Below are positions 3,918 through 9,568 of a DNA stretch of 11,688 bases, piece by piece. Within the stretch, counting starts at the first letter, position 1; every line of letters starts with the position of its first letter. The position numbers and the translations under genes are program-made. The notes beneath the pieces are model-generated. The model saw only the letters and a program-made list of their open reading frames with translations, had not been told where the DNA came from and ran no database searches. The DNA is taken from contig JBHEMM010000055.1 of NCBI GenBank assembly GCA_046262595.1, positions 1-11,688 on the forward strand, given 5' to 3'. The DNA comes from Vulcanimicrobiaceae bacterium. GTDB taxonomy: Bacteria; Vulcanimicrobiota; Vulcanimicrobiia; Vulcanimicrobiales; Vulcanimicrobiaceae.

Positions 3918-5783
3918 CTAATCAGATACAACAACAATGGCCGTCGACGACGAGTCCCACACCGCCGCCGCCATCAGGGGACTCGTGAGCCAAGCAAAAG
4001 CGAGCCGCACCTCCTGGCGCGTGCAATTAACGTGAGCACCCTGCGCCGCGAGTTCTTGATCCACTAAGAACATCGCCGCATCTTCGGTCAGCAGCGGCGC
4101 ATCCGCCGGCGTATTGGCTTGCGCGGCCGTGCACTGCGTCGACCACCCGACGCTGCGGATGATCTCGGCAATAATGCGTACGCGTTTGCGCTGTCCGCGA
4201 TCGCGCTCCCACACAATGTCCGGCAACACTTCTTGCGCCACCACGCCCGGCGCAAACGCGGCGGCAAGATCCAGCGGTGTTAAGCCCGCGCGCAACGCAT
4301 ACACGATGTCGTCCGCGCCCCACAGGCTCACGCCGTGCGTTTTGATCTCGCTGAGCGCTTCCTGTTGCTGCGTCCCCGACTGGCTGCCGATCAGCGCGGC
4401 ATACTTCGCGCGGTATGCATCCCGGAATTTGGCCGCCTCAAAAATGTTCGGACTTTTCTGCAGCGTCGTGCCGCTCTTGCACTCGAACATCACGCGATAC
4501 CCCATCGTCCCGAGCGGCGCATCGGCGTATCCGTCGGGCGCACCCAATCCGCCCACGTGCGTGCTCAGCAGTCCCATTGCGGAAAACGCATCGCACACCG
4601 CAATTTCGAACGCTTCGGGATTCGCGCTATCGCTCGCCGCGCGCTGTAAGCGCGTAATGAGCGCCTCGGTGTCGGCCTTCGGCGGCGCCGCGTGCGCAGG
4701 GTCGTCGGGCCAATCGTCCGCCGGTTCGTTGATGCGAAACTTATGGTCCTCGGTCGGCACCACCACGGGCTTCACGCCGTTTGCAATCTGGCGATCGACA
4801 TACGACCACAAATTGCTCGAAAGATTCCCCACCGTCTCGCTGCACGGCAGATGGCGTTCTTGTGCGATCGCCCAAATCTCGGCCGGCGTTCGCGCTTTTC
4901 CGTCCGACAAAATCGCGCTCACCGTCGAGACAATTTCGCCATGCCGGTGCGCACACACGCGCCGCGAGTGCTTGAGCGGTTCCACCGCTTCACCGGCCGC
5001 GCCCGCCGCAGGCGGCAACGGCCCCGCATCCAGGCGCGCCAGCATGTCGGCGAACAGATCGCCGCACGCAGCCAGCCGAGCCGCAAACGCATCCAGCGGG
5101 ACGCCCCACATATCGCACGAGCCAAGTTCGTCCCACGTCACCGGCGTTGCGATGCGTTGCCGCTGCATACGAACGCTGTAGGGCAGCATGCTCCAGCGGC
5201 CTTCCGCGTTCGAGGACACGTGAATATGCACGCGGCCATCGTCGTGGACGTTTGCTTGTTTGCTGAACAGATCGGGATACGCAGCGATCGCCTCAGCCGC
5301 AATCGCATGCGCCCACGCGCGCACGTCCTTATACATGGGGCCGCCCGTCAGCGGAACGAAAATCGATACGCCGCCCGCCGCATCGAGCACCGGAATCGTG
5401 CCGTAGCCCTTTGTGTGCAGCAGTTCGCTCACAATGTGCGCGCCGCGCCGGACCGTCTCAAGTAGCGCGCCGGATGTATCCGCGATTGGCCGCTCCAGCA
5501 AAATGCGCGCGAAGTGTGCGCGCAGCGGGTCCTCGGGCGTCGGAGTCCACGAATAAAACTCTTGCGCACCGATCGCGGCCAGATGCGCCACATGCTCGCT
5601 GGTCAGATGGGAATAATGGCCGAAATACTCCGCGTGATAATCCGGCCGCCGATCCGCGCTTCGCGCAGCGGTGGTCCAGACGATTGGAATGCGCCCGAAG
5701 CTCTGCTCCATAAACGGCCCAACGAGCTGGTAATGCGCGACGACGGCGTCGTCAATCGACGGCGGCTTCTCGGTTACAGTCAT
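3918..5783 (-). CDS. Fusion protein: degenerate LigD-type primase-polymerase (AEP) domain + HARE-like winged HTH + PD-(D/E)xK (FokI/Mrr-like) endonuclease + possible C-terminal winged helix
   Basis: Start placed at ATG 5783 (MTVTEKPP, 621 aa), preceded by GGGGAG-TAGGG; this avoids overlap with the upstream gene. LigD-Pol scaffold motifs (~5040-5760): LAAIGAQEFYSW, IFVPL, VRAWAHAIA, YPDLFS, PYSVR, IATPVTWDEL, RLAACGDLFADM. Winged HTH (~4728-4940): AILSDGKARTPAEIWAIAQERHL...KFRIN. Nuclease (~4285-4630): AFEIAVCDAF..MG...HVGGLGAPDG...VMFECKS. Confidence 0.88.
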   Translation of the reverse strand: MTVTEKPPSIDDAVVAHYQLVGPFMEQSFGRIPIVWTTAARSADRRPDYHAEYFGHYSHLTSEHVAHLAAIGAQEFYSWTPTPEDPLRAHFARILLERPIADTSGALLETVRRGAHIVSELLHTKGYGTIPVLDAAGGVSIFVPLTGGPMYKDVRAWAHAIAAEAIAAYPDLFSKQANVHDDGRVHIHVSSNAEGRWSMLPYSVRMQRQRIATPVTWDELGSCDMWGVPLDAFAARLAACGDLFADMLARLDAGPLPPAAGAAGEAVEPLKHSRRVCAHRHGEIVSTVSAILSDGKARTPAEIWAIAQERHLPCSETVGNLSSNLWSYVDRQIANGVKPVVVPTEDHKFRINEPADDWPDDPAHAAPPKADTEALITRLQRAASDSANPEAFEIAVCDAFSAMGLLSTHVGGLGAPDGYADAPLGTMGYRVMFECKSGTTLQKSPNIFEAAKFRDAYRAKYAALIGSQSGTQQQEALSEIKTHGVSLWGADDIVYALRAGLTPLDLAAAFAPGVVAQEVLPDIVWERDRGQRKRVRIIAEIIRSVGWSTQCTAAQANTPADAPLLTEDAAMFLVDQELAAQGAHVNCTRQEVRLAFAWLTSPLMAAAVWDSSSTAIVVVSD

Positions 5784-5796
5784 CCCTACTCCCCGC

Positions 5797-5818
5797 AAGC
5801 AGTATTTCGCGACTGCTT
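5797..5818. promoter_or_regulatory. Perfect 7-bp inverted repeat next to the RBS of the nuclease-fusion gene (possible operator or leader hairpin)
   Basis: AAGCAGT-ATTTCGCG-ACTGCTT, 14-35 nt upstream of ATG 5783. Confidence 0.35.
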
Positions 5819-5902
5819 CGGCCGGCAGGCAAGCGCTCCCTATAGGCGGTTTACATCTATGGCGTCCCGACGGAAGACGCGCACGCTCGAGCTGCGGTAC
5901 CT

Positions 5903-6970
5903 TTAACCGTCGGTGAACGGCGTACGGACGCCGCGCAAACCGACGGACCATCGTTCCCGATCGTTTCCCTCATGTTGCGCTCCGTCGCGGAACGTGATCG
6001 TCAAGATCGCGACATCATCCAACGGTTCGTATTGCGCGAATATCGCGTCTTGTATCTCCGCCGCCGGGTTTTTCGCCTTGCGTCGTCCAATTTCTCGCGC
6101 TATCTCCAGCACTCGACGCTCGCCCTCGATCAGGTTGCGATCGTATTCGATCAGTCCGTCCGTGTACAGCACGAGCACCGACTCCGGTTCTGCCGTAAAA
6201 TGGAACGTGCGATATCTGGCATCGGCCTGAACGCCGAGAGGCAAACCGCCATAGTTCAGCAGGCTAGCCGAGCCATCGCTTGCAACGAGGATCGCTGGCG
6301 GGTGCCCCGCCGTCGCATATGTCACTTCCAGGGTGCGCGCGTCGACGTAGCCGCAAATCGCGGTAGCAAACGCCGTCTCCTCGAGCATCAAGCTCGTGTT
6401 GGCTCGTGCAAGGATTGAGCCGGGGTTGTCTTCGTGGAGTGCCGCAATAACGATCGCCTGCCGCGCCTTACTCATCCTCACTGCCGCTTCGACCCCATGC
6501 CCGACGACATCTCCGATGCAGAACATGATGCGCCCGTGCGGCAGTTCGAACGCATCGTACCAGTCGCCACCGACCTTTTCCGACACCGCCGAAGGCAGGT
6601 ACGTGGCGCTGAAACCCAAGTTCGAGACCGCCGGTAGCCGTTGTTGCACGAACGCCTCTTGCAAGCTGTCCGCGAGTTGATGTTCCATGTCGGCGCGCGC
6701 TTTCTCGTCCGCAAGGGCCGCCGTCATGCGTGATTGCCGCCGACCATAATAGAAAACGGCGCTCACGGCGAACGACGCGACGAGACCGGTGAGCGCCCGC
6801 GTTCTGACGTGCGGCCGCAGCTTGGTCCGGCGCAGGACAGCGCTCAACGCAAAATACGAGGCCGGCAAAAACAACAGAAACGGAGCGTTCCAGGGCGACG
6901 TCCCGCGAAAGAAACGGCCTTCAAACCACTTATAGCCGGCTTTCCCGGCCGCCACCGTGCGCGTCAACAA
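5903..6970 (-). CDS. PP2C/SpoIIE (RsbU-like) protein serine phosphatase with two short N-terminal hydrophobic segments
   Basis: 355-aa ORF with TTG start and AGGAG 10 nt upstream (exact start uncertain). Coiled-coil linker EHQLADSLQEAF. Intact PPM motifs VGGDWYD, IGDVVGHG, AGHPP, LYTDGLIE, DDVAIL. Confidence 0.93.
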   Translation of the reverse strand: MLTRTVAAGKAGYKWFEGRFFRGTSPWNAPFLLFLPASYFALSAVLRRTKLRPHVRTRALTGLVASFAVSAVFYYGRRQSRMTAALADEKARADMEHQLADSLQEAFVQQRLPAVSNLGFSATYLPSAVSEKVGGDWYDAFELPHGRIMFCIGDVVGHGVEAAVRMSKARQAIVIAALHEDNPGSILARANTSLMLEETAFATAICGYVDARTLEVTYATAGHPPAILVASDGSASLLNYGGLPLGVQADARYRTFHFTAEPESVLVLYTDGLIEYDRNLIEGERRVLEIAREIGRRKAKNPAAEIQDAIFAQYEPLDDVAILTITFRDGAQHEGNDRERWSVGLRGVRTPFTDG

Positions 6971-7187: not shown

Positions 7188-9206
7188 TCACGGTATGGGG
7201 GCTGCGTCGAATGTAAGCACCTCGAAAGGCTCGAGGTTGAAGCGATGCGATCGTCCGGCCTGCAGCTCGAGGGGTGAGCGGTGCGGGTCCCCCGCCCACG
7301 GACTGCGCAGGCGATAGCGTTTGGCAGCACCGTCGGGAAGCTCGAATGCCTGACCCGGATCCAGCGCAATCGATTGCGGGCGGTCGCTGGGATTGCGCAG
7401 CGAGATGATTCCTTTGCGCGGCGACCACGCCGCGTGACCGTACGGTTCGAGCTCGCCCGGGTCGCCGCCAATCCAATGAACGTCGACGAGCGTTTGCGCG
7501 CCGCTGCGTGACCATTTCGCCGCTTCCGCGATGACGTTCCAATTGTCGGCGGACAGCAGCTCCGGCGTAATGTACATTTCCTGCAGCTGCGTACCGGTGC
7601 CGAAGTACGAGCGAACTTCGTCGCCGAAATCGCCGTGCGGGTCGTCCGCCAAATGCTTCGCGTGTTGCGCGTAGATCATCCCGTGCAGCATGAGCGAGTT
7701 CAGCGGATAGAGTGGGCCGCCCAAGACGATGCCGCGATACGTGTCGAGATCGCGGTACGTGATCCACTGCTGGCGCCATGAGCCTGGACCGGCGAAGTTG
7801 TGATCGTAGCCGCCGCGCCAAATCGAGTCCGCGTATTTGAGCCAAAACGGTGACGGGTACGTGCCGGTCGTCAAGTTGATGTAGAGGTCCGGTTCGGCGG
7901 CGCGCAACACCTCGATGAGATGAATGGCGGCATCGAAGTCGCTGTTGAACGTGCTCCCGCGCACCGTCGTGTCCGTGGAACCCGTGCCGTCGAACTTGAA
8001 CTGATTGATGCCGTACTTCTGGACGAGCTCCAGACAGCGCCCCTCAAAGAGCCGGTAGTACCTCGGACCGGAGAGTGCCAGACCATTCGCGTCGGTTTCA
8101 AGCCCCGCTTTCTTCGCGCCCGCGACGCGCAGATCGTGTGGTTTGCCGTAGCCGCCCCATGGTGAGAGCCAGCAACCCGGGTCCCCGCCGTATTTCTGCG
8201 CGGCGATTTTGAGCGGCGTGAATCCGTCGGGGAATCCGCTGTTGAAATTCCACGCGCCGCTATAGTCGTCCCAACCGTCGTCAAAAAGAAATGAGTCCAG
8301 CTTGACGCCGCGCTGCACACTGAGTATTTCTCCGAACGCATTAATCCGCTGAACGCCTTGCGCCGCAGTGTACGGCGTGAAATGGCCCAAGTCGTACCAG
8401 GAATTGTAGTGCAGAAACGTGCGGTACGGATGCGCGCGCTCCCGCTCGACGTATCGCAGGAAGTCCCGCCGTATTTGCCCCCGAACCGCGGTACCCATGA
8501 CCGTCGAGGCGACGAATCGCCGCTCGTGCTCGAGCGGCAGCGAGACCGATCGGAAGATGCGGGCGCGCGTGCCGGAGACCTCGGCTTGCGAGATGGGGTC
8601 TTCGTAGCCGAAGAACATGCTTCCGGCGACGATGGGTGAGCCCTGAACGATACCGGCGACCGTCGCGCCGCGCAGATCGAGATCGACCATGCGAATCTCG
8701 CTGAGCGGCACGGCTTTTCGCGTTGCGGTAAAGGTCACTTCTTGACGAACGTAGTGCGATCCGTCTCGAAGAATGCCACGCCATTCCGCATGCAATCCGG
8801 TCGCTTCGTCGATGAGCTCGACGATGATCTCGCGGCCGCCAAGGCGTTCGCTCACGCGCGCAGCGCGCGGATCCGCTTGAAGCATGTGCTGGCGCGGGGC
8901 TCCGACGATCTTCATGCGCGAAGAAGCGATCGGACCGCTGTTTTCGAGCGGTCCGTTTTCGTAGAGCACGCTGAACGCGTCGGACGGCAATGCCAGGGAA
9001 CTGCCGGTGCGGCGATTTCGAAAGAGGACCGGGCGAAATGCCGCATCGTCGATTTCCCAAAGCGCTGCGACCGCGTCGTTTTGCAGTACGAACCTGCGGC
9101 CCATCGTGCCGGCATGCGCCGCGCCCGCGTCGCCGAAGCAGACGAAGGAACCGATTTCGGCGGCCGCCGTGAGTCTGATGAAGTCTCCACGCGATATCGT
9201 GCGAAT
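7188..9206 (-). CDS. Exported glycoside hydrolase of clan GH-D type (GH27/GH36 alpha-galactosidase-like TIM barrel); substrate unknown
   Basis: Long ORF (track 7188-9347). Motifs YNSWY, FLFDDGWDD, FPDGFTPL, PGCWLSPWGG, FKFDG (putative nucleophile Asp) and SIWRGGYD (putative acid/base Asp). Tat-like signal ISRGDFIRLTAAA...AAHA. Start uncertain: ATT 9206 has a perfect GGAGG SD; alternatives are ATG 9254 and ATG 9347. Confidence 0.82.
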   Translation of the reverse strand: MRTISRGDFIRLTAAAEIGSFVCFGDAGAAHAGTMGRRFVLQNDAVAALWEIDDAAFRPVLFRNRRTGSSLALPSDAFSVLYENGPLENSGPIASSRMKIVGAPRQHMLQADPRAARVSERLGGREIIVELIDEATGLHAEWRGILRDGSHYVRQEVTFTATRKAVPLSEIRMVDLDLRGATVAGIVQGSPIVAGSMFFGYEDPISQAEVSGTRARIFRSVSLPLEHERRFVASTVMGTAVRGQIRRDFLRYVERERAHPYRTFLHYNSWYDLGHFTPYTAAQGVQRINAFGEILSVQRGVKLDSFLFDDGWDDYSGAWNFNSGFPDGFTPLKIAAQKYGGDPGCWLSPWGGYGKPHDLRVAGAKKAGLETDANGLALSGPRYYRLFEGRCLELVQKYGINQFKFDGTGSTDTTVRGSTFNSDFDAAIHLIEVLRAAEPDLYINLTTGTYPSPFWLKYADSIWRGGYDHNFAGPGSWRQQWITYRDLDTYRGIVLGGPLYPLNSLMLHGMIYAQHAKHLADDPHGDFGDEVRSYFGTGTQLQEMYITPELLSADNWNVIAEAAKWSRSGAQTLVDVHWIGGDPGELEPYGHAAWSPRKGIISLRNPSDRPQSIALDPGQAFELPDGAAKRYRLRSPWAGDPHRSPLELQAGRSHRFNLEPFEVLTFDAAPIP

Positions 9207-9568
9207 GAGCGTGCCTCCGAACGGCGGCGCAATAAAAAGCTCGCGCCGTTCCATTCCGCTGAGTGCCGTGCCGACGCGTTCCTTCCCTAAACGCGCACTC
9301 CTTTGCAAGGCCGCGCACCGCAGCGTTTCAATGCGATCGATCAGCATGACGTCGGACTCCGCAGCGCCACCAGGCCGCGGCTTTTGCCAGTATTTCGTTT
9401 CTCATGAAGACATGCGGGCATACTGCGTGCACCGCACTAGCGACGTTGAGCCATTCTTTTGACGTGGAGGGTCGCTCCGGTGAAAGGCGCTCGGCCAAAT
9501 CGTTCGAGCCGCGCCTACGCAGCAACCGCCGCCCAAGGAGTTTGACTCGGTCTAGGCAAGAGTCGTCC

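Follow-up and report, generated by a model that had tools for sequence, protein, structure and literature searches.

What is a domain of a bacterial DNA-repair polymerase doing on a restriction-type nuclease? The question is raised by a single gene on the minus strand of contig JBHEMM010000055.1 (assembly GCA_046262595.1, Vulcanimicrobiaceae bacterium), of which we analysed an 11,688-nt stretch, called the window below; its host is a soil bacterium of the uncultured phylum Eremiobacterota with a small genome (2.4 Mb). An earlier note, made from the letters of the window, had read this gene as a LigD polymerase domain (PolDom) that has lost its activity, a Pro/Ala linker, a HARE-like winged helix, a PD-(D/E)xK nuclease and a C-terminal helical domain, and had proposed that a repair module was repurposed as a sensor of DNA ends or of end-binding proteins that licenses the nuclease. 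Pfam, an AlphaFold2 model and structural matches bear out the five-part architecture and lead us to a different view of its function. We see an even chance that the protein is an accessory, restriction-like and probably defence-type nuclease of Eremiobacterota, with the PolDom remnant as a dispensable regulatory or sensor add-on rather than a repair or Ku-coupled module.

The coding sequence occupies 3918..5783 on the minus strand, as do all features of the protein given below, and encodes 621 aa followed by a stop codon (3918-3920). Taking the farthest ATG would extend the open reading frame (ORF) to 3918..5951 and 677 aa. We rejected that longer version and accept the start at 5783, backed by an alignment of 28 family members, because 27 of 27 aligned homologues start within a few residues of this Met and because a Shine-Dalgarno-like GGGGAG motif, read from the sequence at 5789..5794, lies 5 nt upstream of the ATG. 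From this start, the order of domains is a LigD PolDom fold, a disordered Pro/Ala linker, a winged helix, a PD-ExK nuclease of the FokI/Mrr type and a second, C-terminal winged helix. Pfam finds LigD_Prim-Pol (PF21686) at residues 62-244 (E 1.3e-17, 64.7 bits against a cut-off of 27.4) and, as a marginal match, Mrr_cat (PF04471) at residues 386-495 (E 1.3e-4, 22.5 bits against a cut-off of 21), and NCBIfam returns LigD models only, all far below threshold (for example, 56.9 bits against a cut-off of 989). The AlphaFold2 model of the full protein, built from a 108-row alignment, has a mean predicted local distance difference test (pLDDT) score of 89.5 and a predicted template-modelling score (pTM) of 0.58, and it places the PolDom at residues 5-255, the linker at 260-279, the first winged helix at 281-352, the nuclease at 370-500 and the C-terminal domain at 503-621. 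The Pro/Ala-rich linker (residues 256-280; 4944..5018) has a pLDDT below 50 at residues 260-279, which read LDAGPLPPAAGAAGEAVEP, and its columns are poorly conserved across the family, with a mean majority-residue frequency of 0.20 and 0 of 25 conserved at 0.9 or above.

The fusion is a conserved protein. A word-indexed protein search returned 219 proteins at E <= 1e-3 among 8000 scored candidates, and 111 of the 119 non-self matches listed align over 90% or more of the query, with 36-73% identity; with so many full-length relatives sharing the architecture, we rejected an assembly chimera, the artefact that the earlier note had held open. These homologues come from metagenome-assembled genomes (MAGs) of Baltobacteraceae and other Eremiobacterota and carry the names 'hypothetical', 'DNA primase' or 'LigD', the last two of which are misleading for members of this family. 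A pattern scan with the family's FRxNxPxDxWP connector motif, taking one genome per species across 185,579 species, recovered 117 relatives; the best 80 of these are nearly all from Eremiobacterota/Vulcanimicrobiota MAGs, the other labels among them being a few MAG contigs, Dormiibacterota, Acidiferrales, Limnocylindrales and a 1.8-kb 'Burkholderia' contig. The fusion of a PolDom remnant with a restriction-type nuclease appears to be undescribed: a literature search, with supplements outside its scope, found no paper describing a LigD-PolDom-nuclease fusion, the parts available to us of a survey of archaeo-eukaryotic primases (AEPs; PMC5862659) mention LigD only as background, and PADLOC-DB 2.0 (5027 models) has 0 families matching the protein at E <= 1. 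We class the protein as a solitary FokI/Mrr-type nuclease bearing an N-terminal domain that is unprecedented on it.

The nuclease domain (residues 370-500; 4284..4676) belongs to the FokI/HindIII/BspD6I/Mrr type by Pfam Mrr_cat, VIA-align and Foldseek. Judged by residue conservation, its catalytic site is intact, as the earlier note had read it and at exactly the positions it had given for PD and ExK. The first acidic residue, E393 (4605..4607), is Glu in 108 of 108 family members, D417 of the PD motif (4533..4535) is Asp in 108/108 with P416 in 106/108, and each residue of the ExK motif, E434-C435-K436 (4476..4484), is found in 108/108. The Mrr_cat model matches 40 of 62 family members at E <= 0.01. 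When residues 275-621 were modelled alone they reached a pLDDT of 94 and a pTM of 0.87, so that we regard them as one compact body. By VIA-align, this core matches FokI at Z 15.3 (220 aligned residues; root-mean-square deviation (rmsd) 13.6 over two domains), HindIII at Z 13.7 (rmsd 3.1, 156 aligned), the R.BspD6I small subunit at Z 12.2 (rmsd 2.7, 139 aligned) and N.BspD6I at Z 11.1; sequence identity to these FokI, HindIII and BspD6I matches is 10-17%, and Foldseek places the nuclease domain with FokI at 4.7e-7.

In the FokI match, model residues 2-246 pair with residues 301-579 of FokI, a span made up of its D3 winged helix and cleavage domain, so that the first winged helix of the core (residues 281-352; 4728..4943) and its nuclease align with those two parts of FokI (1fok/2fok; chain 2fok_A for the D3 region). 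On its own, the first winged helix gives generic winged-helix matches at Z about 8. Its assignment as HARE-HTH (Pfam PF05066), proposed in the earlier note along with the LigD PolDom and FokI/Mrr nuclease matches that we did obtain, finds no sequence support: 0 of 62 family members match at E <= 0.01, and the model is unlisted for the window protein at E <= 1. The helix being generic by fold, a distant HARE-HTH relation would still be compatible with it. Between this helix and the nuclease lies a connector, FR(I/L)N(E/Q)PxDxWP (residues 349-359; 4707..4739), in which F349, R350, N352, D356, W358 and P359 are invariant or nearly so across the alignment.

The domain that the earlier note had called helical, at the C terminus, is instead a second winged helix (residues 503-621; 3921..4277). 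It resembles the WHB winged helices of cullins (model residues 250-346; Z 8-9.4, rmsd about 2, 73-80 aligned), and we take it for a predicted dimerisation domain. The core is predicted to form a homodimer, with an interface score (ipSAE) of 0.71 against 0.00 for the best of three controls; among proteins of solved structure, our calibration mark for such scores was reached by 20 of 30 pairs and 1 of 23 single chains, counts that serve only as a rough guide here because the run used a custom alignment. Contacts agree between dimer runs at 98% or more, and the partner pLDDT is at least 81. The score expresses the confidence of the model, and it may owe part of its height to likeness with solved restriction-enzyme dimers. 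Most of the predicted interface comes from the C-terminal winged helix (protein residues 531-621), and it also takes in a loop between PD and ExK (residues 421-429) that adjoins the catalytic residues.

Set beside known enzymes, the core combines familiar parts in an arrangement of its own. Like the FokI/HindIII/BspD6I group it is predicted to work as a dimer, but unlike FokI it lacks the D1 and D2 recognition subdomains, keeping only the D3-like winged helix, and it carries the extra C-terminal winged helix that would make most of the dimer interface. Nor is it a type IIS restriction-modification system in the manner of FokI, with no cognate methyltransferase in the window and no conserved neighbour. 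It is closer in layout to Mrr-type (type IV) enzymes such as EcoKMrr, in which a winged helix precedes a solitary Mrr_cat nuclease with no methyltransferase, yet it departs from these too: HARE-HTH matches none of 62 members, and this family alone has the PolDom, the extra winged helix at the C terminus and the FRxNxPxDxWP connector. Structural look-alikes in the ESM Atlas fall in Mrr_cat, FokI-cleavage and HARE-HTH plus Mrr clusters with scores of 0.83-0.96, which we treat as leads only.

The N-terminal domain (residues 5-255; 5019..5771) derives from a LigD PolDom, and the AEP-type fold expected by the earlier note is clear. The single sequence matches PF21686 at profile positions 73-254 only, and a profile of the family finds PolDoms of non-homologous end joining (NHEJ) in the PDB at 5.7e-23 to 7e-19 (5dmu 5.7e-23, 2iru 2.9e-21), with profile positions 9-244 aligned to 2iru chain residues 26-289. 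Foldseek with the modelled domain gives 5dmu, 2r9l and 2fao at E about 1e-12, with template-modelling (TM) scores, by target, of 0.70-0.73. The domain therefore has the same fold as the PolDoms of Mycobacterium tuberculosis (Mtb; Rv0938, 2iru/2r9l/4mky), Pseudomonas aeruginosa (2fao) and Methanocella (5dmu), from whose setting it differs in not standing beside Ku or ligase and in being joined to a nuclease. One fused member, P0153 (924 aa), has a far higher PolDom score (125.7 bits, full length) and an additional C-terminal extension of about 250 aa without a Pfam family.

The fold is kept and most of what makes a PolDom work is gone. We mapped residues by profile alignment to 2iru and by MAFFT alignment with the genome's own three canonical PolDoms, counting over the 108 members, and took the roles of the Mtb residues from the portions of PMC8656161 and PMC3898472 available to us. 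Motif II residues S172 and H178 of the Mtb enzyme hold the incoming nucleotide and R244 binds nucleotide (PMC8656161), and one point mutation in the 5'-phosphate pocket abolishes DNA binding by the PolDom (PMC3898472). Two of the three metal-binding Asp (Mtb D137, D139 and D227) are lost. The carboxylate that remains is E97 (5493..5495; Glu in 95/108), the sole one left of the DxD pair of motif I, whose counterpart differs by aligner, being D137 by HMMER and the second Asp by MAFFT with the genome's own paralogues; the other position of the pair is variable. At the Ser position of motif II stands D134 (5382..5384; Asp in 92/108), the His position is Ala in 92/108, Ser in 11/108 and His in none, and the catalytic Asp of motif III (D227) is replaced by H188 in an H186-I-H188 motif (5220..5228; H186 in 105/108, H188 in 104/108). 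Two residues of the canonical site persist in all 108 members: R205 (5169..5171), equivalent to the nucleotide-binding R244, and N192, a conserved Asn of PolDoms.

The end-binding parts have fared similarly. The N-terminal strand with the 5'-phosphate-pocket residues N13 and K16 is absent, since the family begins about 15 residues before an invariant HY and the ITLSNAGKVLWPLDGYTKGDL of the genome's canonical paralogues is without counterpart, and residues vary at the K26 position. Thr, Asn, Ser or Ala occupies the R53 position, which is basic in 0/108; in loop 2, K217 has become Asn in 101/108 and is basic in none, and the R220 position is basic in 4/108; and the region of loop 1 (H83-S85) is cut to 3-6 residues in 73/108, the window protein included. 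What survives is part of the wedge at the junction of single- and double-stranded DNA, with Pro at the P55 position in 99/108 and an aromatic at F64 in 107/108, F63 being variable. The three canonical PolDom paralogues of the same genome retain all the canonical catalytic and end-binding motifs. With the catalytic residues, the 5'-phosphate pocket, loop 1 and the basic residues of loop 2 lost, the remnant should be able neither to polymerise nor to recognise ends in the manner of LigD, and we consider it, on these residue counts, dead as a polymerase, as the earlier note had supposed.

To judge from the same alignment, the former active site is remodelled rather than decayed, with E97, D134, H186, H188, N192 and R205 as a new conserved set. 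Column conservation of the PolDom is well above that of the linker (mean majority frequency 0.52 versus 0.20). The grouping of E97, D134, H186, H188 and R205 into one putative pocket follows from homology to the Mtb active site.

The nuclease core also occurs alone or with another partner, which makes the PolDom both dispensable to it and exchangeable. A phmmer search with residues 261-621 against 1.84 billion cluster representatives returned 383 proteins at E <= 1e-3, 173 of them at E <= 1e-10, in two size classes. Among 47 representatives with the full core, 26 are fused to a PolDom, 3 to a partial PolDom and 2 to an M4 protease, 15 stand alone and 1 has another N terminus. The M4 protease is of the thermolysin type in both fusions, P0139 (696 aa) and P0150 (703 aa), and keeps both HExxH and the Glu downstream of it; P0150 also shows a weak match, below cut-off, to the protealysin propeptide family. 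A FastTree phylogeny of 159 cores intersperses the standalone and M4 forms among the fused ones, and well-supported branches force at least ten changes of state, on a sample skewed to fused forms by the length window of the protein search and with support values that are approximate.

Some standalone cores occur as tandem, head-to-tail pairs, at L030:9493-11713 (contig C58 of genome G250) and L031:3053-5195 (contig C2 of genome G182). The members of one pair are only 56% identical to each other, and one member shares 85% identity with a copy from another genus; the arrangement looks like a conserved paralogue pair and might make a heterodimeric enzyme. About 600 bp downstream of the pair in L030 lies an HNH-effector-like gene (PADLOC PDC-M68A, 2.3e-34). 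We discarded a 643-aa ORF in L031 that at first looked like an extension of a standalone copy, since it is Arg-rich and neither family hidden Markov model matches it.

The distribution of the core is accessory: patchy, multicopy and sometimes decayed. Of the 301 genomes sampled from the phylum, 100 have the core (a tally that includes one unpublished genome, G264), as do 85 of the 234 high-quality ones, and by family it occurs in 92/206 genomes of f1, 3/3 of f2, 4/22 of f3 and 0/69 of all others. It varies even within single genera, with 30/59 and 10/19 genomes positive in two of them, and reaches up to six copies per genome, with fragments, copies with in-frame stops and tandem pairs besides. 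Ku, in a tally that includes nine unpublished genomes, is near-universal in the families that carry the core (190/206 genomes of f1), and in genus g4 it is present in 59/59 genomes against 30/59 for the core. A minority of genomes of the family seem to have lost Ku (G033, G077 and G111, also G029, G280 and G282). In G033, G077 and G111, which are 98, 96 and 95% complete, no Ku match was found and the only PF21686 match is the fusion itself; a dependence on host Ku, which the earlier note allowed for, is therefore not supported.

The window genome (G000) has a complete repair outfit of its own, separate from the fusion. Its NHEJ locus on contig C1 (108937-111447) encodes a phosphoesterase-ligase, a PolDom and Ku, a second ligase-PolDom pair lies on contig C65 (804-2227), and a third PolDom and third ligase are on contigs C9 (6980-7768) and C7 (20223-20816), which makes three canonical LigD PolDoms and three ATP-dependent ligase genes in addition to the fusion. 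The window itself contains no gene for Ku, ligase or methyltransferase, as the earlier note had also observed, and across the 66 loci that we examined the fusion or core never has Ku, a ligase or a canonical PolDom as a neighbour.

These results fit a simple mechanistic picture. A winged helix-nuclease-winged helix core, pairing through its C-terminal winged helix, would be the working part, tied by the flexible Pro/Ala linker to a PolDom-derived domain that may have metal, nucleotide or a DNA structure as its ligand and that may modulate or gate the nuclease; working alone, and outside Ku/LigD repair, the protein would then attack foreign DNA, perhaps in a modification-dependent manner. The closest logic is that of Shedu, with which the family shares a single conserved PD-(D/E)xK core found bare or with differing N-terminal domains, and whose exchangeable N-terminal domains offer the analogy for the gating that we propose. 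According to the portion of the Shedu preprint available to us (10.1101/2023.08.10.552793), an N-terminal domain inhibits the nuclease until infection, 79 N-domain families occur, type 2 is the nuclease alone, and the N-terminal domain has been proposed to recognise the ends of injected phage DNA. Unlike Shedu, the present core belongs to another nuclease family, with no match to a DUF4263/Shedu model in Pfam or PADLOC, and against those 79 families it shows three N-terminal states: none, PolDom and M4 protease.

Several observations weigh against the reading of the protein as an accessory, probably defence-type nuclease with a sensor add-on. The full-length model has a pTM of only 0.58 and so establishes no contact between PolDom and nuclease. 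Nor does the whole family share the HxH pocket: Gly takes the H188 position, and Ala, Trp or Phe that of H186, in a fused subclade (G077, P0153 and P0155). A solitary active nuclease needs self-protection, and we identified none, with no methyltransferase or immunity gene conserved alongside. The defence role that the earlier note also proposed is plausible, but proximity to known defence genes is low: none of the five neighbours in the window has a PADLOC match at E <= 1e-5, and at E <= 1e-8 just 6 of 118 immediate neighbours in 66 loci do, a raw count without a background rate. We found no homologue in 50,697 phage records and one weak partial match in 72,556 plasmid records, and the family scarcely occurs outside a single class of one phylum, an unusual pattern for defence genes that are exchanged freely. 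A bolder version of the proposal, which we hold only tentatively and think somewhat doubtful, is that these are Eremiobacterota-specific, single-protein immune nucleases in which a dimeric core serves under exchangeable sensors. The PolDom would be the first known pseudoenzyme receptor derived from an NHEJ polymerase, the other sensor would be an intact M4 protease, and binding of metal, nucleotide or an infection-derived ligand in the Glu/Asp/His/His/Arg pocket would switch the nuclease on.

Two alternatives keep the remnant closer to its origin. In one, put forward by the earlier note, it senses free or 5'-phosphorylated ends, or Ku- or Gam-like proteins, and licenses the nuclease against linear phage or plasmid DNA. 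The retained NHEJ PolDom fold, the partly kept junction wedge (P55 as Pro in 99/108, F64 aromatic in 107/108) and the precedent proposed for Shedu speak for it, and yet the parts with which a PolDom would do this are the ones that went: the N13/K16 segment is absent and K26 variable, the equivalents of R53, K217 and R220 are basic in 0, 0 and 4 of 108, and synapsis loop 1 is deleted in the window protein and 73/108 relatives. End or Ku sensing is contradicted because this pocket and these loops are missing and because the three genomes without detectable Ku keep the fusion; with a nuclease core that also exists without any PolDom, we consider this account very unlikely. In the other, the nuclease is brought to the NHEJ machinery by its PolDom-like domain and trims ends there as an accessory of double-strand-break repair. 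Descent from a LigD PolDom, a genome with full NHEJ loci (three canonical PolDoms, Ku and three ATP-dependent ligase genes) and a lineage in which Ku is common (190/206 f1 genomes) are all what it would lead us to expect. Against this, the core is patchy where Ku is universal (30/59 versus 59/59 in g4), the fusion is kept in G033, G077 and G111 without Ku or a canonical PolDom, it never adjoins those genes in the 66 loci and no neighbour family exceeds 10 of 68, its copies are multiple, tandem and sometimes decayed, and standalone and M4-fused cores exist. NHEJ trimming is unlikely, given the missing pocket and loops and the Ku-less genomes that keep the fusion, and the repair account as a whole is in our judgement highly improbable.

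Two further alternatives concern the nuclease's way of life and the remnant's chemistry. Up to six copies per genome with fragments and in-frame stops, diverged tandem paralogues (56% identity within a pair, with a member 85% identical to a copy in another genus), varying genomic locations and the weak association with known defence genes could all describe a selfish or addiction-type nuclease, or one with another cellular role such as degrading DNA that has been taken up, whose spread and decay follow its own dynamics rather than immunity. This we find unlikely, as Pfam shows no transposase or integrase within 10 kb in six loci, the window copy has no flanking terminal repeats, the phage records hold no homologue and the plasmid records one weak partial match, and the paralogues are old rather than recent copies. 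A new catalytic activity of the remnant on its Glu/Asp/His/His pocket, such as metal-dependent nucleotidyl or phosphoryl transfer, could coexist with any biological role. Conservation of E97, D134, H186 and H188 at active-site positions (92-105/108) would suit it, as would the invariant N192 and R205, the latter corresponding to the nucleotide-binding Arg of the Mtb PolDom (in the part of PMC8656161 available to us). The fused subclade with Gly and Ala, Trp or Phe at the two His positions and the repeated loss of the domain from the core make this a long shot. It also counts against such an activity that we know of no AEP using a Glu/Asp/His/His site.

If the reading as an accessory nuclease with a PolDom-derived add-on is correct, a dedicated DNA-repair domain has been reused as a non-catalytic module on a restriction-type nuclease, its pocket rebuilt and conserved, and it would add a new domain class to the proteins that combine a nuclease core with a swappable sensor. 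We envision that the family could be approached through a single, experimentally tractable gene from an almost unstudied phylum, and its compact winged helix-nuclease-winged helix core, predicted to dimerise by itself, may interest enzyme engineers as a FokI-like cleavage module.

Around the fusion, the five neighbouring ORFs that we scanned in the window comprise a MASE4 histidine kinase, a PAS-GGDEF-EAL protein, a SpoIIE phosphatase, a membrane protein with a GAF domain and a 719-aa ORF at 7188-9347 on the minus strand, which has no Pfam family at E <= 1e-3 and no PADLOC match and which forms, with the fusion, part of a run of five same-strand genes. A search for sigma-70-like promoters found none, and terminator-like sites (6 versus 2.8 expected) were uninformative. 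There is no conserved partner gene, the most recurrent neighbour family being present in 10 of 68 loci. Six loci in related genomes (L026-L031) show sporadic Fic, WYL and HNH-effector-like PADLOC matches, again without a background rate, and by Pfam no methyltransferase except generic S-adenosylmethionine methyltransferases in two. We considered and rejected a mobile element: no terminal repeats flank the window copy, where only matches of 14-27 nt at chance level occur, and Pfam finds no transposase or integrase within 10 kb in the six loci.

Genome G069 carries the gene about 700 bp upstream of nusG, and five genomes of the same genus have no homologue within 10 kb of nusG; because the left flank is itself variable, an exact boundary of insertion or deletion cannot be drawn at this site. 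Between nusG and rplK in the same genome (L029:13515-13570), some 50 nt recur at about 20 dispersed sites in each of two genomes of the same genus, with 19 matches in G047 and 23 in G085, and look like a short dispersed repeat of that genus, similar to repetitive extragenic palindromic (REP) elements.

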